A stretch of 64,000 bases of DNA, from positions 128,001 through 192,000 of the IMG/VR virus record IMGVR_UViG_3300018080_000099. One strand, written 5' to 3'. This document shows positions 5,561 to 57,653 of this stretch, in pieces. A model generated the notes under the pieces. It was not told where the DNA came from. It ran no database searches and saw nothing but the letters and a program-made list of their open reading frames with translations. How positions within the stretch are numbered: position 1 is the first letter of the stretch; the number at the start of each line of letters is the position of its first letter. The position numbers and the translations under genes were made by a program. Source of the stretch: a virus.

Positions 5561-5563
5561 ATA

Positions 5564-40884: not shown

Positions 40885-43800
40885 ATGGCAACCTTTACTG
40901 ATGCACAAAACGGTAACTGGGCAGATACCAATTCGTGGAATGAAGTAGGATTTCCGGTAGCCGGAGATGATGTAACCATTTCAGCCTACAACATTTCGTT
41001 ATCCGCAGACGAAGCTTGTGCTAGCCTTGACATTCAAGGTGGAAACTTCAACTTTGGTACCGGCGGATATACCATGACTGTATCCGGTGACTATACAGTC
41101 GCCAACAGTTCAGGTTTAATCACTCAAGGAGATGGAACACTTTTCTTATCGGGTGATGGAAACCTTTCTACGCCCCATCAAGATAACGGGCCTGATTTAA
41201 TAAAATGTGCTAATTCTGGTTATACCACAACTCTGGCATCCACTTCGGAAGTTAGAAGTATGCGTTGGTTGGGCGGAACATTTGGTGTTGGAAGTAGCCA
41301 GCATATAGCCGTTGGTCAACAAGCAGGCGATGAAGACCTTGTATTTTCGGCAGACCCCGGAACAACGGCTACTGTTGGTGGTGGTGGAGAAATATACTTC
41401 TCTACGCGTAACAGCGAAACTCGTAATATTGCCGGTTTTGATTTTAATGCGGCTATTGGTTTAAGCTTTTTTGGTGCTGGTGATTTTAACATTTCGGGAA
41501 CCATTTTTAGAACTACTGGTGGTATTTGGAATTGGATGAATCCGGGTTCGTGGAATTTGTTAGGTGGTGTTAATGTCGATTGTGAAGGTCTACAGAACAA
41601 TGACTGTACTTTAAATACTGGAACTGGCACGCACATCTTTAGAAGTGTTACTACATTCACATCCAACGCAACTTTCAATTTTAGCGCATCTAACTGGATA
41701 CTTACAGGCGAGTGGGACCCTGGTTCAACCACCACAGTCAATACCCAACAAGGTACAATAACTTTCAGTGGAGGTTCAGACCAAGATGTTACCTCTCACG
41801 GTGAAACTTTACCAGACATAATTGTTGATAAGTCCGGTGGAACAGTTGCACAGCAAGACGATTTTAACTGTGAGGACTTTTCAATCTCCGGTGGAACATG
41901 GGACACTAACGGTGGTTCCAACTATGATTTGGATGTTGATGGAGACTTTTTACTAGCTGGTGGAACCATTGATGTACAAAGCTCTGATGTGCTTCTTGCC
42001 CAAGGATTCCTTAAAACAGGCGGAACGCTTACAGAAGATTCAAGTAGATGGATATTTAATGGAAATACAGGAACACATACTATCGACTCGTCTTCCGGCA
42101 TTCTTCCTACATTTATCGTTAGTGGAACAGGTGGAACATGGAACTGGGGTGGTACTAATGGATTTGATGCCGTTACAGTAGAAGCTGGAACATTCTCGCT
42201 TAACAACAACAGTAAACAGGTATCATGGACTTCATTGACTGTTAATGGTGGTTTCTTCGATGCTACCAATGGTACGATAGAACCTTATGGTGGAATCACG
42301 ATTGCTGATGCCGCAAACATTGCTGACTTTGGAACATCCAAGATTGTATTCCCTCTTGGTCAGTCTGTATCTAACCCTAACTCAACAAACCCGTTTTACA
42401 ACATTGTGGTTGATGATGGTACAGTAACCATGAACAGTGTTCTTCGCTGTGATGGTGAGATTCAGATTGATGGTGGTACTCTTGATGTTCAATCTTACGA
42501 TGTATACTGTGACGACCTTGACATCAATGGTGGCACATTGGATTTGTCTGATGCCGCCGGCCCTACAGTTTATATTACCGGAGATATAGATGCTACTGGT
42601 AGTGGAACGATTTCGGAAGGAAGTTCAACATTTGATTTTTATGGCGACACCGACCAAAACATAACAAGTAATGGAATAGCTTTTAATGATGTTGTCGTTA
42701 CAAATGTAGACGGTACTATACGTTTTGTAGACGCGTCAACAATATCAGGAACATTTGCACCGGGTAATGGCTCATCTACTGTTACTGTTGGTTTTGAAGA
42801 ATCGCAGAATCACTATTGGGGAGCATATGATGATACGAATGCTTCGGGTGATAGTACGGTTGTTTTAGTAAGTAATTCTCCGACAACGCAGTGGAACCTG
42901 ACAATAGGTTCAAACCAGTCAGCATTCCATACAGATGTAACTGACAGTAATTTGACAGGTAACACTATTGATGCTACCGCGGCAGGAAACGTCGATGGTG
43001 GAAACAACAGCGTAAATTGGATTTTCGCAGACGAGTCGAGTTCAAGCGAATCAAGCTCAAGTGAATCGAGCCAGAGTTCGCCGTCCTCAGAGTCGAGTAG
43101 TAGTGAATCGAGTCAGAGTTCGCCATCTTCGGAGTCAAGTTCATCTGAATCAAGCCCTTCCTCAGAGTCGAGTCCTTCGTCTGAATCTAGTTCAAGTGAA
43201 TCTAGTCCTTCATCGGAGTCGAGTTCATCTGAATCGAGTCAGAGTTCGCCTTCAAGCGAATCGAGTAGCAGCGAATCAAGTCCTTCGTCAGAGTCTAGTT
43301 CCAGTGAGTCTAGTCAGTCAAGTCCTTCGTCAGAATCAAGCCAGAGTTCGCCTTCCAGTGAGTCGAGTTCTTCACAGTCTAGCCCATCTTCGGAATCCAG
43401 TTCAAGCGAATCTTCTCCGTCAAGTCCGTCGTCGGAATCAAGCTCAAGTCAGTCTAGTCCTTCGTCGGAATCGAGTAGCGAATCGAGTCAGAGTTCAGAA
43501 TCGTCCGTAAGCGAGTCGAGTCAGTCGTCTGAATCTAGCGAATCCAGTTCAAGCGAATCTTCTCCGTCAAGTCCGTCGTCGGAATCCAGCAGTTCTGAAT
43601 CGAGTCTATCTTCGGAATCGAGTGAGTCGAGTTCCAGCGAATCTTCTCCTTCGTCTGAAAGTAGTTCCTCGCAGTCATCGCAGTCATCTGAATCTAGTGA
43701 GTCAAGTTCCAGCGAATCAAGTCCGTCGTCTGAGTCAAGTCAGTCGTCACCAAGCTCAGAATCAAGCAGTAGTGAATCGAGTCAGAGTTCGCCGTCGTCT

Positions 43801-45516
43801 GAATCGAGTAGTAGCGAATCAAGTCAGTCGTCACCAAGCTCAGAATCAAGCAGTAGTGAGTCCAGCTCAAGTGAATCGAGTCAGAGTTCACCATCATCGG
43901 AATCAAGCAGTAGTGAATCGAGTCAGAGTTCGCCTTCATCAGAATCTTCAGTAAGTGAATCAAGTCCGTCATCGGAATCAAGCTCAAGTGAGTCGAGCCA
44001 GTCGTCTGAGTCTAGCGAATCAAGTTCTTCGGAGTCTAGTCCGTCGTCTGAATCATCAGTCAGCGAATCAAGCCAGTCAAGTGAATCGTCCGTGAGCGAG
44101 TCGAGCCAGTCGTCTGAGTCGAGTGAATCAAGTTCCAGCGAATCTTCTCCGTCAAGTCCGTCGTCTGAGTCCAGCAGTTCCGAATCAAGCCCATCGTCAG
44201 AGTCAAGCGAATCAAGTTCTTCTCAGTCGAGTCCTTCGTCAGAGTCAAGCGAATCAAGTTCTTCTCAGTCGAGTCCTTCGTCAGAGTCAAGCGAATCAAG
44301 TTCTTCGGAGTCGAGTCCGTCGTCTGAATCTTCGAGTTCCGAATCGAGTCAGTCATCGCAGTCTAGTGAGTCAAGCTCAAGCCAGAGTTCACAGTCATCG
44401 GAATCGTCTAGTTCTGAGTCGAGTCCTTCGTCTGAGTCGTCTGAATCAAGCTCAAGCCAGTCATCACCATCGTCTGAATCTTCGAGTTCTGAGTCGAGTC
44501 CTTCTTCCGAATCTTCAAGTTCGGAATCAAGTCCTTCTTCCCAGTCGAGCCAGTCCGATGAATCAAGCTCAAGCATTTCAAGCTCAAGTGAGTCGAGTCC
44601 ATCTTCGGAGTCAAGTTCTTCTGAATCGAGTCCTTCGTCTGAGTCGAGTGAGTCCTCGCCGTCGAGTGAGTCAAGCTCAAGTGAGTCGAGTCCGTCGTCG
44701 GAATCAAGCGAGTCGAGTTCTAGCGAATCGAGCCCTTCATCTCAGTCGAGCGAATCTAGTTCCTCACAGTCGAGTCCTTCGTCACAGTCAAGCGAATCTA
44801 GTTCCTCACAGTCAAGTGAAAGCTCGCCATCTTCGGAATCTAGCAGCAGTGAATCTAGCTCATCTGAGTCGAGTGTAAGCTCACCGTCATCTGAATCAAG
44901 CGAATCGAGTTCTTCACAGTCGAGTGAAAGTTCTCCTTCGTCACAGTCGAGTGAGTCTAGTTCTTCTCAGTCAAGTGAATCTTCTCCTTCAAGTGAGTCG
45001 AGTTCTTCTCAGTCAAGTCAGAGTTCACCGTCATCTGAATCAAGCTCAAGTGAAAGCTCTCCTTCATCGGAGTCAAGCTCAAGCCAATCATCGGAATCAA
45101 GTCAAAGCTCTCCTTCGTCAGAGTCGAGCAGTAGTGAATCGAGTCCTTCGTCTGAATCAAGCGTATCTTCTGAGTCAAGTGAATCGAGTTCATCTAGTAG
45201 TTCGGAATCAAGTCAAAGCTCTCCTTCATCTGAGAGTAGCTCTTCGGAATCGAGCCAGAGTTCACCATCGTCCGAATCTAGCTCATCTGAATCAAGTCAA
45301 AGCTCGCCTTCATCTGAGAGTAGTTCTTCTCAGTCAAGTCAGTCGAGTCCAAGCTCAGAGTCGGAATCGAGCCAGTCATCGCCGTCAAGCGAATCAAGCG
45401 AATCAAGCAGTTCTGAATCAAGTCCTTCGTCTGAATCCAGTGAATCTAGTGAGTCAAGCTCAAGTTCGGCTACAACTCCACCAATGTTTTATTACTACAG
45501 ACGAAGAAGGCTATAA
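40885..45516 (+). CDS. Giant virion-associated protein: N-terminal Gly/Thr/Asn-rich beta-helix/adhesin-like domain (about 710 aa) plus a C-terminal tail of about 820 aa of Ser-Glu-Ser-Pro-Gln low-complexity repeats
   Basis: 1543-aa continuous ORF. Repeated GGT/TGG beta-solenoid-like units in the N-terminal half. The C-terminal half is almost exclusively SESSSSESSPSSESSQSSPS. Ends YYYRRRRL. Confidence 0.7.
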   Translation: MATFTDAQNGNWADTNSWNEVGFPVAGDDVTISAYNISLSADEACASLDIQGGNFNFGTGGYTMTVSGDYTVANSSGLITQGDGTLFLSGDGNLSTPHQDNGPDLIKCANSGYTTTLASTSEVRSMRWLGGTFGVGSSQHIAVGQQAGDEDLVFSADPGTTATVGGGGEIYFSTRNSETRNIAGFDFNAAIGLSFFGAGDFNISGTIFRTTGGIWNWMNPGSWNLLGGVNVDCEGLQNNDCTLNTGTGTHIFRSVTTFTSNATFNFSASNWILTGEWDPGSTTTVNTQQGTITFSGGSDQDVTSHGETLPDIIVDKSGGTVAQQDDFNCEDFSISGGTWDTNGGSNYDLDVDGDFLLAGGTIDVQSSDVLLAQGFLKTGGTLTEDSSRWIFNGNTGTHTIDSSSGILPTFIVSGTGGTWNWGGTNGFDAVTVEAGTFSLNNNSKQVSWTSLTVNGGFFDATNGTIEPYGGITIADAANIADFGTSKIVFPLGQSVSNPNSTNPFYNIVVDDGTVTMNSVLRCDGEIQIDGGTLDVQSYDVYCDDLDINGGTLDLSDAAGPTVYITGDIDATGSGTISEGSSTFDFYGDTDQNITSNGIAFNDVVVTNVDGTIRFVDASTISGTFAPGNGSSTVTVGFEESQNHYWGAYDDTNASGDSTVVLVSNSPTTQWNLTIGSNQSAFHTDVTDSNLTGNTIDATAAGNVDGGNNSVNWIFADESSSSESSSSESSQSSPSSESSSSESSQSSPSSESSSSESSPSSESSPSSESSSSESSPSSESSSSESSQSSPSSESSSSESSPSSESSSSESSQSSPSSESSQSSPSSESSSSQSSPSSESSSSESSPSSPSSESSSSQSSPSSESSSESSQSSESSVSESSQSSESSESSSSESSPSSPSSESSSSESSLSSESSESSSSESSPSSESSSSQSSQSSESSESSSSESSPSSESSQSSPSSESSSSESSQSSPSSESSSSESSQSSPSSESSSSESSSSESSQSSPSSESSSSESSQSSPSSESSVSESSPSSESSSSESSQSSESSESSSSESSPSSESSVSESSQSSESSVSESSQSSESSESSSSESSPSSPSSESSSSESSPSSESSESSSSQSSPSSESSESSSSQSSPSSESSESSSSESSPSSESSSSESSQSSQSSESSSSQSSQSSESSSSESSPSSESSESSSSQSSPSSESSSSESSPSSESSSSESSPSSQSSQSDESSSSISSSSESSPSSESSSSESSPSSESSESSPSSESSSSESSPSSESSESSSSESSPSSQSSESSSSQSSPSSQSSESSSSQSSESSPSSESSSSESSSSESSVSSPSSESSESSSSQSSESSPSSQSSESSSSQSSESSPSSESSSSQSSQSSPSSESSSSESSPSSESSSSQSSESSQSSPSSESSSSESSPSSESSVSSESSESSSSSSSESSQSSPSSESSSSESSQSSPSSESSSSESSQSSPSSESSSSQSSQSSPSSESESSQSSPSSESSESSSSESSPSSESSESSESSSSSATTPPMFYYYRRRRL
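43024..45480 (+). repeat. Degenerate tandem repeat of about 42 nt encoding the Ser-rich tail
   Basis: Repeated tcgagttc(a/t)agcgaatc(a/g)agc... units throughout. Confidence 0.85.
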
Positions 45517-45520
45517 ATAT
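45513..45520 (+). promoter_or_regulatory. T4-type late promoter TATAAATA (overlaps the TAA stop of the giant ORF)
   Basis: Exact motif 33 nt upstream of the ATG at 45554. Confidence 0.45.
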
Positions 45521-45553
45521 AAGTGTAAACCAATTGTAACATGGGAGATATGA

Positions 45554-46105: not shown

Positions 46106-46951
46106 ATGGCTAACTGGGTAGGGGTATATAACGCCGGTTGGTTCGGAGAAGGCACGACCAATTCCGACCCATTATCGGTATTCCATCACGGATGGTTCGT
46201 GAGTATGGAGATTAGCGGGGTTTCACCCTCTGCTAGCGTCTATGATAGCGTCTATCTGAACTACCAGAATGTCCCGAACCAGTATATCACCAAATGTATC
46301 AATAGCAGCTATGGCGGTTCCGTAGGAAACTATAACAACGAAAGAGAACTGTTCGATGTTCTTGTCACTGAAGCTTACAACAAGCACGGTGTCTGCATGG
46401 ATTACTACGTCACATCGTATGATAAGGCGTATGATAAGATTTGGGGCGAGGACAACGATAGAAGATACGTCCGCAGATTCGAAGTCATGGCATTCTTCAC
46501 ACTTCCGAGAGAGGAAAGACTCTGGACTAAGTTCGGAATTGAAGGCCTTGACTCATTTAGTATGTACGTTTCCAAGAGGCACTTCTGGACGGCTTCACAA
46601 TACGATGCCGCTCAGACAACTCCAAATGCTTATAGTCCGTATATTCCTAAAGCAGGAGACTACATTTACTCTAAATACAACAAATATGTCTATGAGATTG
46701 TCGAAGTAAAAGACGAAATCATGATGAACTTGCTGTCCAAACAGCACGTTTGGGAATTCATGGTGAAGCCATTCAAGGACGAACATATCGAAACCACGAG
46801 TCTTACATCGGCATCACCAATGTCAGCTATCACGAATAAGGATAGCGACAAGTTTGATATTACCAGTGTTGTGGACGCTAAGAAGCCAGATGTTAACTAT
46901 CAACCGCCTCCAACTGAGGAAGGTCCAGACGACCCATTTGGCAATTGGTAA
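46106..46951 (+). CDS. Hypothetical structural protein
   Basis: 281-aa ORF with ATG/TAA overlap. Confidence 0.5.
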   Translation: MANWVGVYNAGWFGEGTTNSDPLSVFHHGWFVSMEISGVSPSASVYDSVYLNYQNVPNQYITKCINSSYGGSVGNYNNERELFDVLVTEAYNKHGVCMDYYVTSYDKAYDKIWGEDNDRRYVRRFEVMAFFTLPREERLWTKFGIEGLDSFSMYVSKRHFWTASQYDAAQTTPNAYSPYIPKAGDYIYSKYNKYVYEIVEVKDEIMMNLLSKQHVWEFMVKPFKDEHIETTSLTSASPMSAITNKDSDKFDITSVVDAKKPDVNYQPPPTEEGPDDPFGNW

Positions 46952-46965
46952 AATAAGGAGGAAAC

Positions 46966-47265
46966 ATGGCAGAAGGTTTTAAGGACTTCAGAAGCAATAA
47001 AGAAAAGCCAAGAGAGGACTTGACAAAGAACGCTGATTGTCAGGAAGCTATCAGGGAACATATTATGGAAAAGATGGGAGTCAGTAATAACGCTCTTGTT
47101 TCCTTGGTTGTTCACGCTACAAGAAACACACCTGTCAATGAAAATGATGTTAAGGAACTTGAGTTTTTCGGATATATTGCCGAAGGAACAATAACCACAA
47201 AGGGAAAAGCTTTTCTTGACGAAGAAGAAACTATCGACAGATTGAAGAAAATGATTGGGTATTAA
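46966..47265 (+). CDS. Hypothetical protein
   Basis: 99-aa ORF with AGGAGG upstream. Confidence 0.45.
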   Translation: MAEGFKDFRSNKEKPREDLTKNADCQEAIREHIMEKMGVSNNALVSLVVHATRNTPVNENDVKELEFFGYIAEGTITTKGKAFLDEEETIDRLKKMIGY

Positions 47266-48244
47266 GCCAATGGCACATATTGATGATGTTAGCAGGAAAG
47301 CTATTGAAGATTTTTTGAGGTCAAAAGATTCCCTTATTGGGAATCTTTTGTCGTTAGATGAAAAATCAGCTATCATGGACCAGCTCTATCCACGTCCAGA
47401 TAGTCCGGCTCCTGTTACGTCTGCAATTCAGGTCGTTAGAGAAGAGGTTGACGTTGAAGAAATCCTTAGTCGAATCCTTATGAACGAGGATATAGTTGCC
47501 CGGTTCAAAGGAGATAAGGGTGACAAAGGCGACAAGGGAGATGACGGAGAAAGCGTCATTGGCGAACAGGGGCCTCCGGGTAAGGACGGTAAAGCTGGAA
47601 AGAGAGGTCCGAGAGGAACCAAAGGTAAAGATGCTGACGTTGAAGAAATTCTAAGAAGGCTTCAAGACGATATTGAGTTCATTCAAAGAGTTCGTGGGTC
47701 TGGTCCAGCTTGGTTAGTTGGCGGCGGAGGCGGAGGAGAGAACAACTCCATTTCTGATGTGGGTGGTGGAACCGGACTTTACTACGGCAAACATGGCTCA
47801 GAACTACAACTCAAATCTCTTTCAGGAGATAACATCACGATTGAGGATGGCGGAGACACTGTTAACTTCTCAGGCGTCAAGTCAGTTTGTATTACTCCAT
47901 TTGAATCTATTTCAGCTGTTCAAATCGAAACAGGAACGATTGCATTCGCTGTTCCTTCTGAAATCAATAACTATGACTTAACCGCAGCTGTAGCTACTGT
48001 TCATGATGCTGGAACCGGCACAGGTTCTATTGATGTTCAGATAAGACGTAGAAGAAACGGCTCCGATGTTGATATGCTAACATCCCCAATAACTCTATCA
48101 GTTGGTGAATTCTTTGCCACTGACGGAGTCATAAATACAGGTAATAATACCGTTCAAACAGGAGACCAAATCTTCATAGATGTGGATTCAGTGACAACAA
48201 CTCCTCCGAACGGATTAGCTGTAACACTGACATTTAGAAAGTAA
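47255..48244 (+). CDS. Fibre-like protein with a short collagen-like Gly-X-Y segment and a GGGGENNSI module shared with the ORF at 57923
   Basis: GDKGDKGDKGDDGE...GPPGKDGKAGKRGPRGTKGKD (about 14 GXY triplets) flanked by DVEEIL..R repeats, then GGGGGENNSISDVGGGTGLYY. Confidence 0.55.
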   Translation: MGIKPMAHIDDVSRKAIEDFLRSKDSLIGNLLSLDEKSAIMDQLYPRPDSPAPVTSAIQVVREEVDVEEILSRILMNEDIVARFKGDKGDKGDKGDDGESVIGEQGPPGKDGKAGKRGPRGTKGKDADVEEILRRLQDDIEFIQRVRGSGPAWLVGGGGGGENNSISDVGGGTGLYYGKHGSELQLKSLSGDNITIEDGGDTVNFSGVKSVCITPFESISAVQIETGTIAFAVPSEINNYDLTAAVATVHDAGTGTGSIDVQIRRRRNGSDVDMLTSPITLSVGEFFATDGVINTGNNTVQTGDQIFIDVDSVTTTPPNGLAVTLTFRK

Positions 48245-48268
48245 CTCAACTGACATTGAGGACATGAT

Positions 48269-48601
48269 ATGATAATTGTCAATCATTTATCAGAGTGGTT
48301 GTACAGTACTGATTGCTATGGCAACCGACTGGTACAGGACTGGGAAATCCCTTTCATCTTTGAGCGTCTAAACGAAATAGAATTAGAAGATTTAGTTATC
48401 GTTGAAGGAAACTTAGAAACCGACCAACCCAACTCTATCCTTGTTGACATCACCACACACATTTCAGGCACATTTCAACCGGGCAAAGATGTGATAATAT
48501 CCTTGGCCCATTTTATAAGACCGTGCCCTTGTGGATGTCACGAACTCCAGTGCGAATGTTATGTAGCTGACTGTGAGTGTTGTTCAGGAGAATGTACATA
48601 A
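48269..48601 (+). CDS. Cys-rich small protein
   Basis: CPCGCHELQCECYVADCECCSGEC at the C-terminus. 110 aa. Confidence 0.4.
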   Translation: MIIVNHLSEWLYSTDCYGNRLVQDWEIPFIFERLNEIELEDLVIVEGNLETDQPNSILVDITTHISGTFQPGKDVIISLAHFIRPCPCGCHELQCECYVADCECCSGECT

Positions 48602-51313
48602 ATGGCTGTAGGAGATGTATGTAAATATCGGGTTTCGACACATGCGTTACCAACTTCAGAAGATGTTTGGGAAGGTGTCGCCTTTGGTACAACTGTAGGA
48701 ACACCAGCCACCATCTATTCGATGAGCGCCAACAACATCGACATTCAGATAAACGAAACTGGATGGTATCTCGCTACATATCGTGTTAGAACTGAAGGTG
48801 AAGCTAATAACCGAAACATTCTAAGATGTAAAGCTGTATATGATAGAACTGATATTGAAGGTGCTATCGGAACTCGTTATTATCGAAACGATGCCAATGA
48901 TGAAGTTTGTCCAACCGCTCACTGCTTATTTGAAGTAACCGCAACAGGTAACTTCTTTAGAGTTGAAGCATTGGTTCGTGGAGAAGATTCGACACCAACA
49001 GATGATGCTACAACTGATAGTGAAGTTCAGTTGGTTCGACTTACAGATGAAACAGCCGCGTCCTATGCAAACTATACTGATGGTTCAGATACAGGAAGTT
49101 ATGGTACGACTACTTGGGATGGATTATCGTGGGATACTGTTGAAGATGAAACCGACACATCCGTCATCGAATTAAGCGCAGACGGAGAGACGGTTGAATT
49201 AAAAGAGATTGCAAGGTATCTTGTTTCGTACAATGTGACCTTCCAACATACAAACCGTTCCGCTAGAATTGGTCGAGCAACTCTTAATGGTGTCGAACTT
49301 CCAAACTCAAATAGTCAGCTATATCTTAGAGATACTGATGTTGACTTTAACTCCTTGAATGCTCTTTTCATTGTTGATGTTAGTGCTGCTAATTCTACAC
49401 TGAAAATAGAGGCACAGGTCGGTGATAACTCAAGTGGAGGGTCAAGAGTAGTAAATGCAAGCAGACTTGGTGTCATGCGATTGCCTGATACGGCTGAGGT
49501 TGTTATTGGTAGGGATGATACTGGTGGGCAGGAAATGGGTGGGGCTGGTAATGTTACCCTAATCAACTCATGTAGAACTACGCCCACAATTGACGCCGCA
49601 TCTTTTACAAGGAATGATAATACTACAATCGAAGTCGAGAAAGATGGTAACTATCTATTCATGCTTAATGGTAGATTGAATAGAGGGACTTCAACAGGTA
49701 CAAGATGTCAGATTCTTTCTCGATGGACATTGAATAATGTAGACCAACAGGTTCTTTCTACGTGCTACATTCGAGGTCTTCAGTCATCTCTTTACACATA
49801 CGATGGTGGATATGGTGCTTCATTTATAGCCAACCTTTCAGCTAATGACCAAATTGAGTTTGAGTCATTTGAGCAGGGTGATAACGGATTAGCACAGACA
49901 GTTGGTGGTAGTATTGGTATGGCGGCTTTGAACCTTGATACTTTGTTAGGTGAGGAATCAAGCTCCGAGTCAAGCTCACAATCGCAAGATATTTCATCAG
50001 AATCTTCTGAGTCTAGTTCATCTCAGTCAAGTCCTTCGTCAGAATCCAGCAGTAGTGAATCGAGCCAATCTTCTCCGTCAAGTCCTTCGTCTGAGAGTTC
50101 ATCTTCTCAGTCAAGTCCTTCTTCGGAATCGAGTTCCTCAGAGTCCAGTGTTTCGTCACCGAGTTCTGAGTCGTCAAGCTCACCGTCAAGTCCTTCGTCT
50201 GAATCGTCATCGTCTGAATCGAGTCAGTCTAGCCCATCTTCGGAGTCTAGTTCAAGCGAGAGTTCGGAGTCGAGTCCTTCGTCTGAGTCCAGCAGTTCGG
50301 AATCAAGCCCATCATCCGAAAGCAGTTCTTCTCAGTCAAGCCCATCTTCTGAGTCAAGTTCTAGCCAGTCCAGTCCTTCGTCCGAGTCGTCCGAATCGAG
50401 TCCTTCATCCGAAAGTAGTTCTTCTCAGTCAAGTCCTTCTTCCGAATCAAGCCCTTCTTCGGAATCGAGTTCTAGCCAATCTTCGCCGTCATCGGAATCG
50501 AGTTCTAGCCAGTCTAGTCCTTCATCGGAGAGCAGTTCTTCTCAGTCAAGTCCTTCGTCTGAATCCTCGGAATCGTCAAGCTCACAATCAAGCCCATCGT
50601 CCGAGTCGAGCAGTAGCGAAAGTTCTCCTTCGTCTGAGTCGTCTGAATCAAGCTCAAGTCAGTCTAGTCCTTCGTCCGAATCAAGTTCATCGGAATCGAG
50701 CCTGTCAAGTCCTTCATCTGAGAGTAGTTCTTCTCAGTCAAGTCCTTCGTCAGAATCTAGTTCCAGTGAATCGAGTGTTTCTTCTCCTTCTTCGGAATCG
50801 AGTAGTAGTGAAAGCTCTCCTTCGTCCGAATCTAGCGAATCAAGCTCAAGTGAATCGAGCCCATCTTCGGTATCGTCCGAATCAAGCTCAAGCGAATCTA
50901 GTCCTTCATCGGAATCTTCGAGTTCGGAATCAAGCTTGTCATCACCGTCAAGCCAGAGTGAAGAAAGTGAATCGTCTGAATCAAGTTCTAGCCAGTCATC
51001 TCCTTCGTCTGAATCAAGCTCATCCGAATCAAGCCAGTCGTCGCTTTCATCTGAATCAAGTTCCAGCGAAAGTTCGGAATCAAGCCCGTCGTCACCATCG
51101 TCAGAATCAAGTAGTAGCGAATCAAGTCCTTCGTCTGAATCCAGTTCAAGTGAATCAAGCCCATCTTCGGCATCGAGTGCTTCGTCAGAATCAAGTTCAT
51201 CATCGGTATCAAGCGCTTCTTCGGAATCTAGCTCATCCGAATCTAGTTCATCCGAGGGGCCACAACCCATAGTTGGTAGGAGACTAAATAACCGTATAAT
51301 GATGTTGTCGTAA
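48602..51313 (+). CDS. Second large virion-associated protein: N-terminal folded domain of about 445 aa plus a C-terminal Ser-Glu-Ser repeat tail of about 440 aa
   Basis: 903-aa ORF. The tail composition is identical in style to that of 40885-45516. Confidence 0.7.
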   Translation: MAVGDVCKYRVSTHALPTSEDVWEGVAFGTTVGTPATIYSMSANNIDIQINETGWYLATYRVRTEGEANNRNILRCKAVYDRTDIEGAIGTRYYRNDANDEVCPTAHCLFEVTATGNFFRVEALVRGEDSTPTDDATTDSEVQLVRLTDETAASYANYTDGSDTGSYGTTTWDGLSWDTVEDETDTSVIELSADGETVELKEIARYLVSYNVTFQHTNRSARIGRATLNGVELPNSNSQLYLRDTDVDFNSLNALFIVDVSAANSTLKIEAQVGDNSSGGSRVVNASRLGVMRLPDTAEVVIGRDDTGGQEMGGAGNVTLINSCRTTPTIDAASFTRNDNTTIEVEKDGNYLFMLNGRLNRGTSTGTRCQILSRWTLNNVDQQVLSTCYIRGLQSSLYTYDGGYGASFIANLSANDQIEFESFEQGDNGLAQTVGGSIGMAALNLDTLLGEESSSESSSQSQDISSESSESSSSQSSPSSESSSSESSQSSPSSPSSESSSSQSSPSSESSSSESSVSSPSSESSSSPSSPSSESSSSESSQSSPSSESSSSESSESSPSSESSSSESSPSSESSSSQSSPSSESSSSQSSPSSESSESSPSSESSSSQSSPSSESSPSSESSSSQSSPSSESSSSQSSPSSESSSSQSSPSSESSESSSSQSSPSSESSSSESSPSSESSESSSSQSSPSSESSSSESSLSSPSSESSSSQSSPSSESSSSESSVSSPSSESSSSESSPSSESSESSSSESSPSSVSSESSSSESSPSSESSSSESSLSSPSSQSEESESSESSSSQSSPSSESSSSESSQSSLSSESSSSESSESSPSSPSSESSSSESSPSSESSSSESSPSSASSASSESSSSSVSSASSESSSSESSSSEGPQPIVGRRLNNRIMMLS
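49946..51250 (+). repeat. Ser-rich-tail coding repeat (paralogous to 43024-45480)
   Basis: Same degenerate 42-nt unit. Confidence 0.85.
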
Positions 51314-51330
51314 CAATTAAAGGAGTTTAT

Positions 51331-53025
51331 ATGAGCGTTGAATTGACTTTTAGTACATGTGACAGAATACCAATCCCATTCGAGAACCACTACAAAAACT
51401 CTTCATGTTTCTTGGTGCTTTCCGGCCCGTCATTGAACAATCACGACCTGACAAAGATTCAGCAACCGGGTATTACCACATTTGGCGTAAACAATTCTCC
51501 GAAAGCATTTAGGCCCAACATGTGGATTTGTGTGGACCACCCTTCAAGGTTCATGATTAGCATATGGAAAGACCCGAACATTACTAAGTTCGTGCCGTTC
51601 TTTAAAGCCAAATCTAACCTCTTTGATAACTTCAACTGGCAGAACACCGACAGAAGGGTTATGGATTCTCCGAATGTTGTGTACTACCATCGGAACGAAC
51701 AGTTCAATCCCGACACATTCTTGACTGAAAAGACTGTCAACTGGGGAAACCACAAGAAGTATGGTGGTGGCCGAAGTGTTATGATGGCGGCACTGAAGAT
51801 TTGCTATCTGCTGGGATTCAAAAACGTGTTCCTGCTTGGATGTGACTTCAAGATGGAGAAGGATAAGCAAAACTACTCATGGGAACAAAACCGAAGTGTC
51901 GGTTCCGTGAGAGGAAACAACAGCACATATAATAAAATGATTGATAGATACACGAAGCTTCAACCGATTTTTGAGGAGAAGGACTTCCATGTGTACAACT
52001 GCAATCCCGACTCTCAGCTTCAAGTCTTTCCGTACATGTCCTATGACGATGCCGTGGCAACTGCATTGAAAGAGTTCCCTGATGTGAAAACAGAAAGAGC
52101 TGAAGGAATGTATGACAGATTTGATGCTGAAGAAAAGAGGAAAAAGGATAAAAAGAAAATGAAGCAAATTGAGAAAATCAAGAAGTCCGAGAAACCGATT
52201 GAAGGCTCTTGTGGAGTCATCTATTACAATGTGGGTAAGGGAGCCTTGGTAAGACTTGCGGTATCTCTTGCAACTTGTGTGAATCACTACCCTAAAGACA
52301 AGATAACAATTCTGGCAGACTATGAAGGCTACAATGAATGTAAGAAGATTGCAAAACACTTCGGAGTCAACTTGAAAATCATTGAACTGGAAAAGCTTGA
52401 CAAGAAGGAAGTCCTTCTCAATAAGTGTTTGGCACACACATACACACCTTATGACAATACGATATTCATAGATTCTGATACCATTGTACTGGGAAGCTTT
52501 GATGAACTACATGATGAAGCTGAAAAGCATGAATTCGTAACTACACAGTTCTCAGACTGGCTAACCACAAGGGGAGTCATTAAGAAAAGAATCAAGGAGT
52601 GGAAGCCTATCTTCCCAGATATGATTGGTGAAGCTCTCAAGGAGAGGCCATCAGTCAATGTGGGTGTCTTTGCATTTCGTAGGGATAGTGAATTTATGAA
52701 GGTGTGGTTTGATTATGCTAAGCATGGAACTCACATGTTCATTCCTGATGAACAATGCTGTCATTTGCTTATACCAAAGTTCAAGAACAGTATCGTATCA
52801 CACGACTACAACTCAAGTTGTAAGTATGACGAAATAACCGATTCCACCAAGATTCTTCACTTCCACGGAAGGAAGCACTGTCGAGTGGACGAAGATGGAA
52901 CATACAAATTCAATAGCGACAAATGGTATGCTGAGTTTGACAAGATTAGAGAGTTGGACTTTGTTAAGGACAATATCCAACACGATAGACAACTGAGAAA
53001 GCATTTACCGATGAGGGACAAATGA
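51331..53025 (+). CDS. Two-domain putative glycosyltransferase: N-terminal Maf/CstII-like (GxGPSL...GCDF) domain and C-terminal GT8/GT-A-like DxD domain
   Basis: LVLSGPSL and LLGCDFKM motifs in the N-terminal half. YNVGKGALVRLAVSLATCVNHY followed by IDSDTIV (DxD) in the C-terminal half. 564 aa. Confidence 0.5.
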   Translation: MSVELTFSTCDRIPIPFENHYKNSSCFLVLSGPSLNNHDLTKIQQPGITTFGVNNSPKAFRPNMWICVDHPSRFMISIWKDPNITKFVPFFKAKSNLFDNFNWQNTDRRVMDSPNVVYYHRNEQFNPDTFLTEKTVNWGNHKKYGGGRSVMMAALKICYLLGFKNVFLLGCDFKMEKDKQNYSWEQNRSVGSVRGNNSTYNKMIDRYTKLQPIFEEKDFHVYNCNPDSQLQVFPYMSYDDAVATALKEFPDVKTERAEGMYDRFDAEEKRKKDKKKMKQIEKIKKSEKPIEGSCGVIYYNVGKGALVRLAVSLATCVNHYPKDKITILADYEGYNECKKIAKHFGVNLKIIELEKLDKKEVLLNKCLAHTYTPYDNTIFIDSDTIVLGSFDELHDEAEKHEFVTTQFSDWLTTRGVIKKRIKEWKPIFPDMIGEALKERPSVNVGVFAFRRDSEFMKVWFDYAKHGTHMFIPDEQCCHLLIPKFKNSIVSHDYNSSCKYDEITDSTKILHFHGRKHCRVDEDGTYKFNSDKWYAEFDKIRELDFVKDNIQHDRQLRKHLPMRDK

Positions 53026-54410
53026 GAGATTTTACAATCGTAACAGCCTGCACGCCGGACTATCTGACGAAGCTTCAATGGAGTTTGCCGTCATGGAATA
53101 CGAAGCCTCAGTTCAGGGGTAAGAAGATGATTCTATTCCACCACGGCTTTGACAACCTGAAAAATCTCAGGTTTGTCAAGAAGCATTTCGATGTCAAGTT
53201 TGTGCATTGGGATATGCCAGAGTACGCCAATGTGAGAGAGTTAATGCTCTCGTCATTCATTCTGGGTTCGGCTAGGTATGTCAAAACCAAATACTTTGTG
53301 AAGATAGATGCCGACACCTATTTCACGAATCCAGACGATGTGTTTGGTAGGAGAGATTTCAGGTACGATGTCGTGTCTCATAAATGGAGATATACGAAGC
53401 CGGGCCATTGGATAAACGACTTGGACAAATACTACTTGGACAAAGATACAGGTAAGTATGGAAGATTGTACCACGAGCCAAGAATACAAAGTATATGTTG
53501 CCTACACAAGACAGAGTTTGTTAGGAGACTAGCTGAAAGATTTGGTGAGAGACTTCCTGTGCCGAGTCACGACACGGTTCTATGGTACTTTGCTGATAGA
53601 ATGCCGGACAGGAGTTGGAAGGGTAGGAACCTGAGAAAGCGAGGAGTCGGTCATGCATCTCAATGGAAAACCATTCGGGAAGGTGTTTGTGCTACCGGCG
53701 ATGCCAACAACGCATTCCTTAGAGATAGTTTGATGAATAACATTCAACTGGAAGTGACTTCATTCTGCCAGTTGGGATGTTTCAACTGTGATAGGAACTG
53801 TGGCATTTACAAGGATGCTACATATATCCCATTGGAGGATATTCAGAAGTTTGTGGACGATTCTATCCGGTTCAATAAGAAGTGGAGTCGTATAGATATT
53901 ATTGGAGGCGAGCCGACATACTATCCGTACTATCAGCAGATGTTTGAAGTGATTAAACAGTATAAAGATTTTTACCCAAAGTGTCGAGTCAGATTCAGCA
54001 CGAATGGTTTGGGTAAGTTTGTCAATGAGAGATTGAAGGAGATTCCGGCATGGGTTCATGTTAGAAACTCCAACAAGTCAAGTCGGAAGCAGGCATTCAC
54101 TTCATACAATTCGGCACCAGTTGACAACGGGGAAACCGAAATAAAGGCTTGCTCGATTCCGTGGAGATGTGGAATGGCTTTGACACAACACGGATACTTT
54201 ATCTGTGGTGCCGGTGCTTCCCTTGCCAAGGTGTTTCAGTTTGATATTGGTATCAAGAACTTTGAGGAAGTGGAGCCGGGCAGACTACTGAATCAGATTC
54301 CAATTCTGTGTAAGTACTGTGGACACAGCAACTGCAAGAGTAAGCATATAACGGAAGTTGAAGAAATCAGTGAGAGCTGGCAAAAAGCATTGGATAAAAG
54401 GGAAAAGTAA
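53022..54410 (+). CDS. Fusion protein: glycogenin-like GT8 glycosyltransferase N-terminal domain plus a radical-SAM domain with a SPASM/twitch-like C-terminal Cys cluster
   Basis: FTIVTACTPDYL together with KIDADTYF (the GT8 A-VT...DY and DxD motifs). Then CQLGCFNC (CxxxCxxC) and IDIIGGEPTYY (the GGEP SAM motif). Then C-terminal CSIPWRCG...CKYCGHSNC. Confidence 0.6.
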   Translation: MRDFTIVTACTPDYLTKLQWSLPSWNTKPQFRGKKMILFHHGFDNLKNLRFVKKHFDVKFVHWDMPEYANVRELMLSSFILGSARYVKTKYFVKIDADTYFTNPDDVFGRRDFRYDVVSHKWRYTKPGHWINDLDKYYLDKDTGKYGRLYHEPRIQSICCLHKTEFVRRLAERFGERLPVPSHDTVLWYFADRMPDRSWKGRNLRKRGVGHASQWKTIREGVCATGDANNAFLRDSLMNNIQLEVTSFCQLGCFNCDRNCGIYKDATYIPLEDIQKFVDDSIRFNKKWSRIDIIGGEPTYYPYYQQMFEVIKQYKDFYPKCRVRFSTNGLGKFVNERLKEIPAWVHVRNSNKSSRKQAFTSYNSAPVDNGETEIKACSIPWRCGMALTQHGYFICGAGASLAKVFQFDIGIKNFEEVEPGRLLNQIPILCKYCGHSNCKSKHITEVEEISESWQKALDKREK

Positions 54411-55348
54411 TGGGAGCTTTTTATAAGACGTTTAATGAAAAGATACGAGAGGTTTGGAAGCTAGCAACCCAACTGGACAAACCAGTACGAGAGAACCTTA
54501 CATGGACTGTTGGTATTATCAATGGTAGATGTGACTTTGAGGATTTACAGGCACATGGAGCCGCCCTCATGGCAAGCATCATCATTAAGGAGAAAGTAGT
54601 TCCCAAAATCATTTGTGTCTGGGACACCCCGACTGATACTAACACCAGTAAGTGGGACCTTGAGGAAAGACAACGAATCTATCCTTTGTATCTTTTAAGA
54701 CTGTTTGACGAATTTGATGAAAGCTTTTTGGAGAAACCAAAGATATTCAGCTGCAATCGGCTGAGTAACCAATATGTTTCGTTACACAGGGCCGGTTGGT
54801 CAGTCAATCCAATTCCATCAGGATTGACGCTTGGTTATAGGGCTAAGTATCTTGGTTTGAATTATGTCAGGACGACGCACGCTATCATGTCAGATATTGA
54901 TACTATATGCACGGATGAGTGCTGTGATTATGTTCAGGAAAACATTGATAGAAACCCAGAGACCTTTTGTTTAACGAATTACTACGATAATGAGAATGTG
55001 AGTGTAGGGCTTGTAGCATTCAACATGCGAAAGTACAGAGAAGTCTATTTACCACTGTGGCATGAGATGTATTGGAAGTTACCGAAAGCCGATGCTAAGT
55101 TCATTCAAGCTATTCGGAAAGAATATCTTGAATGTCAGGATGAGCTTGATATACAATTGATGGACAAGAACGTTGTCAACACTGAAAAATACTACCACAA
55201 TATTCCAAGGAAGAATCACTGGGTAGATGATAAGTCAAAACACTACCATGCTTGGAAAGGTGAGATGGAGCAAAACACCGAAGAGTTCAATAGCTTCTAT
55301 AACGACATACTGGACAATCTAATAAAGGATGCAAAAACAAATGATTGA
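54410..55348 (+). CDS. Hypothetical protein within the glycosylation cluster
   Basis: 312-aa ORF with ATG/TAA overlap on both sides. No motif recognised. Confidence 0.45.
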   Translation: MGAFYKTFNEKIREVWKLATQLDKPVRENLTWTVGIINGRCDFEDLQAHGAALMASIIIKEKVVPKIICVWDTPTDTNTSKWDLEERQRIYPLYLLRLFDEFDESFLEKPKIFSCNRLSNQYVSLHRAGWSVNPIPSGLTLGYRAKYLGLNYVRTTHAIMSDIDTICTDECCDYVQENIDRNPETFCLTNYYDNENVSVGLVAFNMRKYREVYLPLWHEMYWKLPKADAKFIQAIRKEYLECQDELDIQLMDKNVVNTEKYYHNIPRKNHWVDDKSKHYHAWKGEMEQNTEEFNSFYNDILDNLIKDAKTND

Positions 55349-56081
55349 AATGTGTGTAGTGTGTTACAACTTTCAGAGAAGATGGACAATGCAGTTAGCT
55401 TCTTTGGCTCAGCAAATAGAACCACCGGACTTCATAATCAATGTTGCTTATGTCAAGGACAACGGCAACCCGGATGTAGAAACGGTTGTGAATTTCTATG
55501 AGCAAAAGGGACTAAAGTTCAAGTTGACTCCATATGAGCATATGGGTAAAGGTAGAGGGCTCATCAGGAATCGACAGGTTCAAAAATCTTCGGAAGATTG
55601 GTTACTGTTTATGGACTGTGATTTGATTTACCACCCTACGTTTTTTCAAGGGATAGCAAAGCATATGAACCCGGACTGTCAAAACGTAATCGGAGTGCCG
55701 AATATTGCTTATACAAGGGTTGAGAATGTGAATCCATTTTTTGACAATTTTGAATCTATGTATGTTGAATCAGCTTATGATGTAGCGAAATCATTTGGGA
55801 TAACAAGAACGCATGGTCAGAAAAGGAAGGGAGCCAATGGAGGCTTCCAATTGGTTAGGAGAGAAATGGTGATGGAGAAGTGCAAAGGTAGATATGTAAA
55901 TCCCAAACGAACAGGTGATAAGCAGATGGGCCACATGGGAACCAGAAGCGATATTAAGTTCAGACAAGCTATTGATGGAGGGGCATACAGGTCGAAAATG
56001 ATTAATACACTACCAGTACAAATTCACCTTGAACATTGGCGAAAGATAGATGAACAATTTAACATCGAGGCACAACGATGA
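55329..56081 (+). CDS. Family 2 (GT-A) glycosyltransferase
   Basis: GKGRGLIRNRQVQKSSEDWLLFMDCDL, the GT2 signature (ARNxG...FLDxDD pattern). Confidence 0.65.
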   Translation: MQKQMIEMCVVCYNFQRRWTMQLASLAQQIEPPDFIINVAYVKDNGNPDVETVVNFYEQKGLKFKLTPYEHMGKGRGLIRNRQVQKSSEDWLLFMDCDLIYHPTFFQGIAKHMNPDCQNVIGVPNIAYTRVENVNPFFDNFESMYVESAYDVAKSFGITRTHGQKRKGANGGFQLVRREMVMEKCKGRYVNPKRTGDKQMGHMGTRSDIKFRQAIDGGAYRSKMINTLPVQIHLEHWRKIDEQFNIEAQR

Positions 56082-56746
56082 AGCTACATTCAAATACGAG
56101 AAGGGTTTTGTTTGAGGAACTAAAGCAAGAATGTTATGGCCTGAAAATGATTTCTCAGGACAGCATTCCAAATATGATTGACATTGGAGCTAATGTTGGA
56201 ATGTTATCAATCATGGCAAGATTGCTTCATCCTCATATGAATATATTTGCTTTTGAGCCCCACGAAGAAACGTTTAAGGATTTGAAAGAGAATGTTGACA
56301 ATCTGAGAATCAAAACATACAGGTATGCTTTTGGAAATGGCGACGTGTTCTACTTGACAAAAGAGAGAAAGATGGACTTGTGTAATAGTTTTAGTACTGA
56401 AAAGAACATTATTAATAAGACACAAGAAATCCAAAGTCTCGACCTTGAGCAAATTTTCAAGATGGTTAGTGTTGAACCAGAGGACACATTCCTCAAAATA
56501 GATTGTGAGGGAGCTGAAACGTTTATGGTGGATTGCCCGAAGTCAATTGAGTTACTGAAAAGAACAAAGCTTGTTGCAATGGAAGCTCATGAAAAGGACG
56601 CTGTGATTAAGCTAAAACCCTTCATAGAATGGTTTATGAAAACGATGTGGGGAACACATACAGTAATCATTGACAAGCAAACCAGTGTTGTGGCGAAGTT
56701 ATTAGCCGTTGAAAAATCTTATTACAGGAGCCAGTTATCCATATGA
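56078..56746 (+). CDS. FkbM-family SAM-dependent methyltransferase
   Basis: MIDIGANVGMLS...NIFAFEP, the FkbM domain signature. Confidence 0.7.
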   Translation: MKLHSNTRRVLFEELKQECYGLKMISQDSIPNMIDIGANVGMLSIMARLLHPHMNIFAFEPHEETFKDLKENVDNLRIKTYRYAFGNGDVFYLTKERKMDLCNSFSTEKNIINKTQEIQSLDLEQIFKMVSVEPEDTFLKIDCEGAETFMVDCPKSIELLKRTKLVAMEAHEKDAVIKLKPFIEWFMKTMWGTHTVIIDKQTSVVAKLLAVEKSYYRSQLSI

Positions 56747-57297
56747 TTTGGCACAAACAATTTCCGAAACTTATACAACACATAGCGAAGGGCATGAGTG
56801 TAAGCAATGGCTTAAACAACTACTTGGAGCTGGGTGTGTTTCGGGGTAGGACTTTTAATAGAGTTGCCCCATATGCCAAGAATGCCTATGCCGTTGATAT
56901 GAAGAAGGTTTTCTACAAATATATCGCCCACAACGAGAACCTCGTGTGGTACAGATGTACCACGGACGAGTTCTTTGAACAGTTGGACGAGAATACGATG
57001 TTTGATTTAGTATTCATAGACGCTAACCATTCCCGTGAGAATAGCATGAGGGACTTTAAGAACTCTTTTAAGCACTTAAATGGGAATGGAATAATCTTAT
57101 TGCATGACACTTATCCACCGGACGAATCTCAGATTACTGATGGAATCAATGGATGTGGCACAGCATATCAAACGGCTTTAGAAATTAAGCAGGAATGGGG
57201 AGAAGTCTGTGAAATAACGACACTTCCGTTCTGGTTTGGGATTTCAATAGTGAGGAAAATTTCAAATAATGTTCAGCTATATTGGAAAGGAGAGTAA
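56743..57297 (+). CDS. Class I SAM-dependent O-methyltransferase (TylF/MycF-like)
   Basis: YLELGVFRGRT (motif I) and DLVFIDANHS (DxDH). Confidence 0.65.
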   Translation: MIWHKQFPKLIQHIAKGMSVSNGLNNYLELGVFRGRTFNRVAPYAKNAYAVDMKKVFYKYIAHNENLVWYRCTTDEFFEQLDENTMFDLVFIDANHSRENSMRDFKNSFKHLNGNGIILLHDTYPPDESQITDGINGCGTAYQTALEIKQEWGEVCEITTLPFWFGISIVRKISNNVQLYWKGE

Positions 57298-57653
57298 TCA
57301 TGATTAAGCAATCCAAGATTTGGGGTGAAACAAGTAAATTCTTTTCAAAGAATAATGTGGAGATACATAGACTAAATATAACTGAGGGAGGCTATTGTAG
57401 CGAACACTACCACAACTTTAAGTACAACATGTTCTTAGTTGAGAGTGGTGAGATTGAAGTGACAATCTATCGTGATAATGGTATCAAGGAAACGACAGTT
57501 TTGAAGGATTGTGACCAGACTACAGTTCCCCCGAATTTCATTCATCGCTTCAAAGCCAATAAGGATTCAGTAGTCTATGAAATATATTGGGTTGCCCTTG
57601 AAGGTGAAGATATTGAGAGGCGTACTGTTGGAGGGACAACAGTAATAGAATGA
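57282..57653 (+). CDS. Cupin-fold protein (sugar epimerase/isomerase-like, RmlC/FdtA type)
   Basis: SEHYHNFKYNMFLVESGEIEV cupin motif. 123 aa. Confidence 0.45.
   Translation: MERRVIMIKQSKIWGETSKFFSKNNVEIHRLNITEGGYCSEHYHNFKYNMFLVESGEIEVTIYRDNGIKETTVLKDCDQTTVPPNFIHRFKANKDSVVYEIYWVALEGEDIERRTVGGTTVIE

Follow-up and report, generated by a model that had tools for sequence, protein, structure and literature searches.

The open reading frame (ORF) 48602-51313 lies on the plus strand of a 64,000-nucleotide stretch of viral DNA (IMG/VR record IMGVR_UViG_3300018080_000099, positions 128,001 to 192,000; the whole stretch is referred to as the window) and encodes a Ser-tailed protein, referred to as the target. 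In this protein a folded N-terminal module is followed by a long Ser-rich tract and a short basic peptide. Comparison with related phages shows that tract and terminal peptide behave as a cassette on interchangeable heads of the binding type (triple-C1q, beta-helix-like and LamG lectin-like). In our estimation there is an even chance that a T4-like phage of approximately 264 kb expresses the target late, as an accessory protein of this three-part architecture, whose tract would be glycosylated by the products of the adjacent gene cluster and whose terminal peptide would dock to the neck.

The proposed mechanism is as follows. The N-terminal single-chain pseudo-trimer of C1q/TNF/BclA-like jelly rolls would represent the binding head; the usual role of this fold is that of the ligand-binding knob of fibres. 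The polyanionic Ser-rich tract of 434 amino acids (aa) would serve as a long flexible tether, and the short conserved cationic/hydrophobic C-terminal peptide would dock the protein to the virion, with the neck as the most likely site. The head would thereby be displayed at the far end of the tether. The products of the downstream cluster, which is apparently co-transcribed, would O-glycosylate the Ser tract, which would yield a stiff, protease-resistant and mucin-like stalk.

Anatomy of the target and of the two Ser-rich tracts

The following parts of the target were distinguished:

48602-51313, plus strand: target ORF, 903 aa, start ATG, stop TAA
48602..49951, plus strand: N-terminal module, aa 1-450, folded and of ordinary composition, with three predicted tandem BclA_C/C1q/TNF-like jelly rolls
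49952..51253, plus strand: Ser-rich tract B, aa 451-884, degenerate ESSSS-ESS-(QSS)-PSS units
51254..51310, plus strand: class-1 terminal peptide EGPQPIVGRRLNNRIMMLS, aa 885-903, basic end of 19 aa

The jelly rolls span approximately aa 1-150, 151-300 and 301-450, and these thirds are mutually related (blastp E 8e-9). The Pfam family BclA_C (PF18573) matched 15 of 34 family members (best E 5e-16); the target itself reached 31 bits at a gathering cutoff of 38. A structure model (AF2), which was calculated from the 34-sequence alignment and replaced a poor model from a 3-sequence alignment (predicted local distance difference test, pLDDT, 60), showed a ten-strand jelly-roll beta-sandwich of approximately 130-150 aa and a trimeric packing of the three jelly rolls. 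Because of the related thirds and the BclA_C matches within the family, the module is, as modelled, a naturally occurring pseudo-trimer that combines its C1q/TNF-like jelly rolls in a single chain. This assignment and the conservation of the terminal peptide go beyond the initial annotation of this DNA.

A profile search in 1.84 billion cluster representatives revealed 378 members at E ≤ 1e-3, and the model would give a fold to this family, which comprises at least 378 sequence clusters and is hitherto uncharacterised. The module is mostly located at the N-terminus, followed by 0 to >2000 aa of unrelated repeats or domains, and it was also found as an internal domain of very large proteins (5870 and 7287 aa). 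BFVD contained a few structural matches to the module over the full length, from uncharacterised proteins. In the INPHARED phage collection neither the module (tblastn) nor the region 45554-50000 (distant blastn) gave a match, and PHROGs contained no family for the N-terminal module of the target or for that of the second Ser-tailed protein of the window (ORF 40885, see below). A peptide-pattern scan of IMG/VR starting from the single target protein yielded nothing; a 7-sequence alignment did yield relatives.

In close relatives the module showed 47-72% identity, and what follows it varies widely. There is nothing in the loci L001 and L008, a small folded domain in L004 and Ile/Lys/Leu-rich repeats in L003. 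Other loci carry genome-specific Ser/Thr tracts: L009 has poly-Ser, L002 poly-Ser with a 120-aa domain, L005 a tract (TSTSTTTT)n with a length of 641 aa, L006 (SESSSS)n, L010 (SSSSSSSSQ)n, and L012 as well as L013 (SASESASESPSE)n.

Ser makes up 68-69% of tract B, Glu 14-15%, Pro 8% and Gln 4%; Lys and Arg are absent (net charge -64). The most plausible reading of the tract is a long polyanionic tether, presumably disordered, on which selection acts at the level of the peptide. The window encodes one more protein of this kind, and the stop-poor repeats of both tracts give rise to further ORFs:

40885-45516, plus strand: first Ser-tailed protein (ORF 40885), 1543 aa
40885..43032, plus strand: its N-terminal module, aa 1-716, beta-helix-like look from repeats, weak G8 Pfam match only
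43033..45468, plus strand: Ser-rich tract A, aa 717-1528, 812 aa, repeat dialect as in tract B
44194..44324, plus strand: three near-perfect 42-nucleotide (nt) units in tract A (Tandem Repeats Finder, 96% matches)
45469..45513, plus strand: class-2 terminal peptide ATTPPMFYYYRRRRL, aa 1529-1543, which matches the end of the LamG protein of L016, AAIFQYYRRRRI
43061-43510, 43622-43954, 44123-44878, 44924-45553 and 49950-51272, plus strand: alternative-frame ORFs, not genes
50734-51390, minus strand: alternative-frame ORF, not a gene

Tract A (70% Ser, 15% Glu, 7% Pro, 5% Gln; net charge -128) is close to tract B in composition. Both share the units ESSSS, ESS, PSS and QSS as well as periods of 11 and 14 aa (33/42 nt), and the cosine of their 4-mer peptide spectra (0.98) exceeds that of either tract with any foreign tract. 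Every one of the 564 14-mer matches between the tracts, and likewise each of the 64 blastn high-scoring segment pairs, was on the same strand and in frame 0. In tract B, 324 positions carry a 14-mer that is also present in tract A, in comparison to 69 +/- 13 in synonymous-codon shuffles; the likeness of the tracts hence exceeds what their amino acid content accounts for. The N-terminal modules of the two proteins showed no relation by BLASTP (best E 1.6). The initial annotation had described one and the same C-terminal Ser-rich module, on the target a tail of about 440 aa with a basic end, behind unrelated N-terminal domains. This description holds: the tail comprises the 434-aa tract and the 19-aa peptide, and the tracts agree in frame, strand, composition and repeat units, with no mismatch of frame or composition.

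Frame 0, in which Ser is encoded, is the selected frame. Its amino acid entropy in the tracts is 1.4 bits versus 3.1-3.5 bits in the other frames, its codon entropy amounts to 3.4 bits with use of all six Ser codons, and stops are absent. The alternative-frame ORFs listed above were rejected as genes and are regarded as by-products of the stop-poor repeats. That a non-coding or mis-assembled repeat merely lengthens an ORF might be suspected, since stops are scarce in other frames as well (none in frame +1 of tract B) and two assemblies break within the tract. This suspicion is already effectively refuted. Tract B is fully covered in two independent assemblies (L024 and L026, 99.98% identity) and partly in two further ones (L025 and L027, 99.98-100% identity). 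In addition, the entropy of frame 0 is by far the lowest despite a high codon diversity, the conserved terminal peptide follows in frame after 434 codons, and in-frame Ser/Thr tracts occur behind the same domain in at least seven relatives with unrelated DNA. The locus is not an assembly artefact.

In the independent ENA assembly L024, ORF 40885 has a length of 1529 aa, which is one 42-nt unit fewer than in the window, and the alignment offsets between both shift by 42 nt. This is either a population polymorphism or an assembly difference. It was the sole length variant found; the length of tract B was equal in three assemblies. Among near-identical genomes of related phages, tract lengths of 282 versus 369 aa and of 1070 versus 1011 aa were observed.

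The initial annotation had also suggested an exchange between the two tracts by recombination. A recent event of this kind, in a region that is unstable and prone to deletion or inversion, is very unlikely and was rejected. The single repeat dialect per genome (mean cosine of the 4-mer spectra 0.91 within genomes versus 0.50 between genomes), the excess of shared 14-mers over codon shuffles and the variable tract lengths in near-identical genomes would fit such an exchange. However, the DNA of tracts A and B is only 63-66% identical, which is no more than the identity of each tract with itself at an offset, and the longest exact common run is 34 nt. The constant length of tract B points in the same direction. 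Moreover, a deletion between the direct repeats would take out the neck gene located between them, and the heavy synonymous scrambling looks like an avoidance of recombination, which would protect this essential gene. The evidence points instead to a long-term sharing of one repeat dialect per genome, to shuffling of the cassette between genomes and to small indels of repeat units.

The tract-plus-peptide cassette and its orientation

Relatives with the cassette were found via the glycosyltransferase (GT) encoded downstream of the target, and their loci were then compared. The class-1 ending ...LNNRIMMLS occurs after Ser tracts on three different N-terminal modules. Besides the target, it is present in L016_892, an unrelated two-domain protein of 750 aa that ends with ...EGPQPSIGKKLNNRVMVLS, and in the Ser-tailed protein of L018, which ends with ...VVVTLKNRIMMLS. 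The pre-tract domain of the latter is homologous to that of ORF 40885; more precisely, the last 135-165 aa of the N-terminal module of ORF 40885 are homologous to the pre-tract domains of L018 and L006. The class-2 ending ...YYRRRR[LI] was found on two modules, ORF 40885 (FYYYRRRRL) and the LamG protein of L016 (FQYYRRRRI). A back-translated pattern for ...NNRIMMLS followed by a stop gave no match in IMG/VR.

The tract can also be located between modules. In L006 a single chain of 1790 aa comprises a triple-C1q module, a Ser linker of 45 aa, a LamG/beta-helix region, a tract of 880 aa and a basic end. Transfer of the Ser-rich module, as proposed in the initial annotation, is seen in three forms, namely on other N-terminal modules, between two modules (L006) and fused to a neck protein (L022, L023 and L031, see below).

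Several proteins with the same repeat type were frequently found in one genome, four in L002, three each in L006 and L016, and two each in L005, L010 and the window. In L002, poly-Ser follows different N-terminal domains in four neighbouring proteins (16-666, 1399-3927, 4257-6074 and 6086-6687). The three of them whose C-terminus is on the contig carry a domain of approximately 120 aa after the tract. These domains are similar in length and pattern; the likeness is clear for two, whereas the third has diverged further. Such a domain is a folded counterpart of the terminal peptide. In two phages that are not T4-like, Ser/Pro/Ala- or Ser/Pro/Glu-rich proteins are encoded (L033 16281-17438 and L035 15707-16969). 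They share a short hydrophobic ending (PPFDLEGVFLPHISIHIAGGLI and PAPFVLIYQPHIANYIGIGIM), which represents a third class of terminal peptides.

Two neighbouring genes may be relevant for the attachment of the target:

46106..46951, plus strand: T4 gp13/gp14-like neck protein, Pfam T4_neck-protein 27.3 bits, PHROG head closure Hc2 E 7e-13
48269..48601, plus strand: Cys-rich protein of 110 aa, junction TAAATG, in which its stop abuts the ATG of the target

The neck protein is a candidate docking partner of the terminal peptide. In L022, L023 and L031 an N-terminal domain of 338 aa and a Ser tract of 450-510 aa are followed by a C-terminal neck domain with 68% identity to the neck protein of the window. 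Two tandem gp13/14-like neck paralogues are present in L016 (1-1347) and L006 (6028-7605), and the second one of L006 starts with a SESSSS tract. Anchoring by the C-terminus is favoured because of the neck fusions and because the terminal peptide is constant across different heads. Of the two orientations we infer it to be the more probable one.

Some findings speak against this orientation. The Ser-tailed protein L016_282/L017_369 stops within the tract and lacks a terminal peptide. Across the 378 clusters of the wider family, the N-terminal module stays constant and the C-terminal extension varies extremely, and the Cys-rich gene always precedes the triple-C1q gene; for these reasons the N-terminus might be the anchored end. 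The triple-C1q module, perhaps together with the Cys-rich protein, would then be the virion anchor, and the Ser chain would form a free outward hair, whose cationic tip touches the host envelope or other surfaces. A conserved N-terminal C1q module with extensions of 0 to >2000 aa is the usual layout of N-terminally anchored phage fibres, the Cys-rich gene is always adjacent, and a pseudo-trimer could occupy a three-fold position of the capsid. Against it, one and the same terminal peptide is found behind the tracts of three unrelated N-terminal modules, and the C-terminal element is the neck protein itself in L022, L023 and L031. We regard the reverse topology as rather unlikely and retain docking by the C-terminus.

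In 13 loci a homologue of the Cys-rich gene is the immediate upstream neighbour of the gene with the triple-C1q module; its product is a conserved partner, possibly a chaperone or adaptor. The Cys-rich proteins of approximately 110 aa in the window and in L001-L014 have the C-terminus CPCGCHELQCECYVADCECCSGECT, and the stop of their genes abuts or overlaps the next ATG.

The target is probably part of the virion, as its gene position, its fold and the neck fusion in relatives suggest. Release at lysis or a role in the infected cell, for example as soluble lectin-like adhesin, matrix binder or exclusion factor, appears improbable. The occurrence of the family inside the 5870- and 7287-aa proteins would be compatible with such a role. 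Against it, no signal peptide-like sequence was seen at the N-terminus of the target upon inspection of the sequence, the gene is placed between neck and portal genes with collagen-like and fibre-like proteins as neighbours, and the same architecture is fused to the neck protein in relatives.

The downstream enzyme cluster and its proposed substrate

The target gene is followed by a cluster of seven genes, which belongs to a candidate late transcription unit:

45512..45519, plus strand: T4-type late promoter motif TATAAATA, next plus-strand copy at 57660
47255..48244, plus strand: collagen-like protein, Pfam Collagen E 7e-6 (below cutoff), PHROG tail-fibre families
51331..53025, plus strand: two-domain GT, Maf/MptE-like (sialyltransferase-like) N-terminal half, GT8-like C-terminal half
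53022..54410, plus strand: radical SAM protein, Pfam Radical_SAM 31.2 bits, conserved partner of the GT gene
54410..57653, plus strand: rest of the cluster, starting with a 312-aa protein without family
55329-56081, plus strand: GT2
56078-56746, plus strand: FkbM methyltransferase
56743-57297, plus strand: Methyltransf_24
57300-57653, plus strand: cupin

The late motif TATAAATA occurs nine times in the window (472, 1766, 3116 and 4695 on the minus strand; 33877, 35596, 45512, 57660 and 63131 on the plus strand), always on the coding strand of the respective arm. Two copies (2.0) were expected, and none of 100 shuffles reached nine. The region 45554-57653 could be one late transcription unit, which would comprise a gene for a 183-aa protein, the neck gene, the collagen-like gene (47255), the Cys-rich gene (48269) and the target, followed by all seven genes of the cluster (51331-57653). 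The GT gene starts 17 nt past the stop of the target behind a strong ribosome-binding site (AAGGAG), and no convincing terminator was found in this gap.

The first enzyme scored 28.9 bits against Pfam PF01973 (cutoff 34.6; E 1e-6), and its match to GT8 is weak (E 0.005). A PHROG alpha-2,3-sialyltransferase family matched with E 1e-9, and many homologues carry a precomputed PF01973 assignment. In Maf enzymes, which attach O-linked glycans to Ser/Thr residues of flagellins, PF01973 forms the central domain (PMC11339370). Searches of the PDB with the GT and radical SAM protein sequences gave only insignificant matches (glycogenin E ≥ 0.03; one radical SAM enzyme E 0.36), which were not used.

Five T4-like lineages and at least three further contigs from phages contain the conserved pair of GT and radical SAM genes. 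In all eight adequately covered lineages (the window, L016/17, L018, L020, L022/23/31, L032, L033 and L035, of which L033 and L035 are not T4-like) a protein with a Ser-rich tract is encoded within 10 kb of the pair. No such protein was found in the sequence covered at nine loci without the pair (L001, L004, L037, L040, L042 and L044-L047). One of these, L042, belongs to a related phage of 254 kb and has a neck gene within 10 kb upstream of the portal gene. In the window, L016/17 and L018 the Ser-tailed gene directly precedes the GT gene. The link between substrate and enzymes that the initial annotation had drawn from the neighbourhood of the glycosyltransferase genes is strengthened by this comparison.

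In the window, L016-L023 and L031-L035 the radical SAM protein, whose N-terminal half of approximately 235 aa carries a DAD motif and has no family assignment, is always paired with a Maf-like/GT8 gene. The pair was also seen in phages that are not T4-like and that encode virion proteins of 2500-2900 aa, ERF and YqaJ. The Thr/Ser-tailed protein of L005 is located in a different cluster with GT1, GT2 and methyltransferase genes.

O-glycosylation of the tract by the cluster is the most economical reading, because the linkage is tight, late co-transcription is apparent, and the Maf-like/GT8 and radical SAM cluster co-occurs repeatedly with such tracts. Some points weigh against it. The Maf-like match of the GT is below the Pfam gathering score, no nonulosonic-acid (Pse/Leg) genes were seen among the ORFs scanned in 64 kb of the ~264-kb genome, and in L020 and L022 the Ser-tailed gene is located several kb downstream of the GT gene and is not adjacent to it. 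Furthermore, the co-occurring loci are partly related, and the background rate of Ser tracts was sampled on few control loci; for this reason the association of the enzyme pair with Ser-tract proteins is suggestive, not proven.

It is unlikely that the tract stays unmodified and serves as an entropic spacer of the polyserine type, with a cluster that acts on another substrate, for example the host envelope, a polysaccharide or DNA. In some marine gammaproteobacteria, secreted carbohydrate-active enzymes commonly have polyserine linkers between their modules, which need no dedicated enzymes (PMC2386152), and plain poly-Ser linkers are found in the relatives L002, L009 and L010. In addition, DNA is often the substrate of phage glycosyltransferases. 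The co-occurrence in eight of eight lineages, including phages that are not T4-like, is a point to the contrary, and the cluster is located in the apparent late structural unit, away from the replication genes. FkbM methyltransferases and cupins would be typical of sugar tailoring, and a naked Ser/Glu chain of 434-812 aa would be very exposed to proteases. O-glycosylation of the tract is thus still preferred. A further glycosyltransferase-like gene is present in the replication arm beside gp46/47 (28797-29990, minus strand; PHROG 7162 E 2e-20, no Pfam match). Its product may act on a different substrate, for example DNA.

Comparison with known systems and wider genome context

The serine-rich-repeat proteins (SRRPs) of Gram-positive bacteria, such as GspB, Fap1 and SraP, have a similar layout: a binding region is combined with a very long Ser-rich stalk, a short C-terminal anchor element and adjacent dedicated glycosyltransferases (PMC6973325, PMC7948813). 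In the target the 434-aa tract likewise follows a fold of the binding type, and anchoring and glycosylation are predicted. The order of short tract, domain and long tract in L016_892 resembles SRR1-BR-SRR2, and repeats of the SASESAS type occur in L012 and L013. Differences are evident as well. The target and ORF 40885 have no LPXTG motif and no long signal peptide, and the repeat in the window is ESSSS-ESS-PSS and not an S-X dipeptide. The target has no SecA2/SecY2/Asp or GtfA/GtfB among its neighbours, which instead encode Maf-like/GT8, radical SAM, GT2, methyltransferase and cupin proteins, and the carrier is a phage and not a cell wall. Membership of the target in the SRRP family was rejected, as LPXTG and the accessory Sec (aSec) system are missing. 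Only tentatively, and with the chances somewhat below even, we consider a phage counterpart of the bacterial serine-rich-repeat adhesin system, in which a portable cassette of a Ser-rich tract, heavily O-glycosylated by a dedicated Maf-like/GT8 and radical SAM pair, and a short docking peptide at the C-terminus would plug interchangeable lectin-like heads, including a single-chain C1q/TNF pseudo-trimer, onto neck or capsid, and in which cassette and enzymes would travel between unrelated phage lineages.

The polyserine linkers of Saccharophagus degradans, Cellvibrio japonicus and Teredinibacter turnerae are likewise long Ser runs that serve as flexible spacers between modules (PMC2386152). Such linkers are present between the head and a small C-terminal domain in L002 and L010, and a Ser run between two folded modules was seen in L002, L006 and L022. 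In the window, by contrast, the target tract is followed only by the 19-aa peptide. The tracts of the window are approximately 10-fold longer than these linkers, are rich in Glu, Pro and Gln, end with a peptide of only 15-19 aa, and are tied to a glycosylation cluster in a phage.

Phage-encoded glycosyltransferases that modify structural proteins of the same phage are described for the mycobacteriophage Che8 and its relatives (Freeman et al. 2023, as reported in PMC11256854 and PMC12582341). The substrate that these citing papers name is the major capsid protein, and the host is an actinobacterium, whereas in this T4-like jumbo phage the presumed substrates are dedicated Ser-rich tethers on accessory proteins. 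The Maf flagellin glycosyltransferases share the PF01973 (Maf_flag10, Cst-II-like) domain and act on Ser/Thr of surface proteins in the cytoplasm (PMC11339370). The enzyme 51331-53025 differs from them by a score below the cutoff and by the fusion of this domain to a GT8-like one, and neither flagellin genes nor those of a nonulosonic-acid pathway were seen in the window.

BclA, the nap glycoprotein of the Bacillus anthracis exosporium (F-BclA in the tip fibrillum), resembles the target in the fold of its knob and in its glycosylated stalk, if the tract is indeed glycosylated. BclA is a homotrimer, and its knob is located C-terminal to a collagen-like GXT stalk; the target carries three predicted knobs in one chain at the N-terminus. 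Its stalk is a single non-collagen Ser-rich chain, and in contrast to BclA and C1q there is no collagen GXY repeat in the target, but one in the neighbour 47255-48244. Homologues of this collagen-like protein were found in L006, L016, L020 and L022. Engineered single-chain trimers of TNF/C1q proteins (sc-APRIL/BAFF 4zch, sc-Cbln1 5kca, sc-C1q 5hzf and sc-adiponectin 4dou) are laboratory constructs with artificial linkers, and they show 8-13% sequence identity. The target module occurs in nature, as a family that comprises at least 378 sequence clusters, and, if the model is correct, nature has made the single-chain trimers that engineers design.

The fibritin (wac) whiskers and the Hoc capsid fibres of T4 are non-essential fibrous appendages; wac is encoded beside the neck genes, and Hoc is displayed for adhesion. 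The target is also a candidate for a fibrous type of appendage encoded near a neck gene. Unlike these proteins, it has no coiled coil, foldon or Ig-like domains, and its chain is presumably disordered and not a folded fibre. Apart from the C1q/TNF fold, the target is outside all of the compared families by their defining features.

To our knowledge, virion glycosylation by phage enzymes has been demonstrated so far only in a few actinobacteriophages. If the proposed reading is true, large T4-like phages and further phages from the environment would have it as well, and binding domains would be hung on the virion in a modular way via a glycosylated disordered tether. This would have a bearing on host range, on adhesion to particles or mucus, and on phage engineering and display. 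The conserved enzyme pair beside an obvious candidate substrate makes the chemistry directly testable.

The two arms of the window show that the phage is T4-like (Straboviridae-type) and very divergent. The minus arm encodes NrdA, the gp44 clamp loader, RNase H, gp32, the gp41 helicase, UvsX, the gp43 polymerase and gp46/47. UvsW, the gp13/14-like neck protein and the gp20 portal (61285-63120; ≤ 30% identity to any phage in the INPHARED collection searched) are encoded on the plus arm. With gp20, the neck protein, the T4 replication genes and the late promoter motif, features of the T4-like structural module are present, and the target gene is located between neck and portal genes, downstream of a late motif.

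Some additional genes were noticed. A minus-strand ORF of 158 aa (46900-47376) overlaps the end of the neck gene and the next plus-strand gene and is probably spurious. Near UvsW, the window contains an HNH/homing-endonuclease-like ORF (36038-36904). In L022/L023 the UvsW homologue (4669-6498) contains an intein with Hint and Intein_splicing domains.

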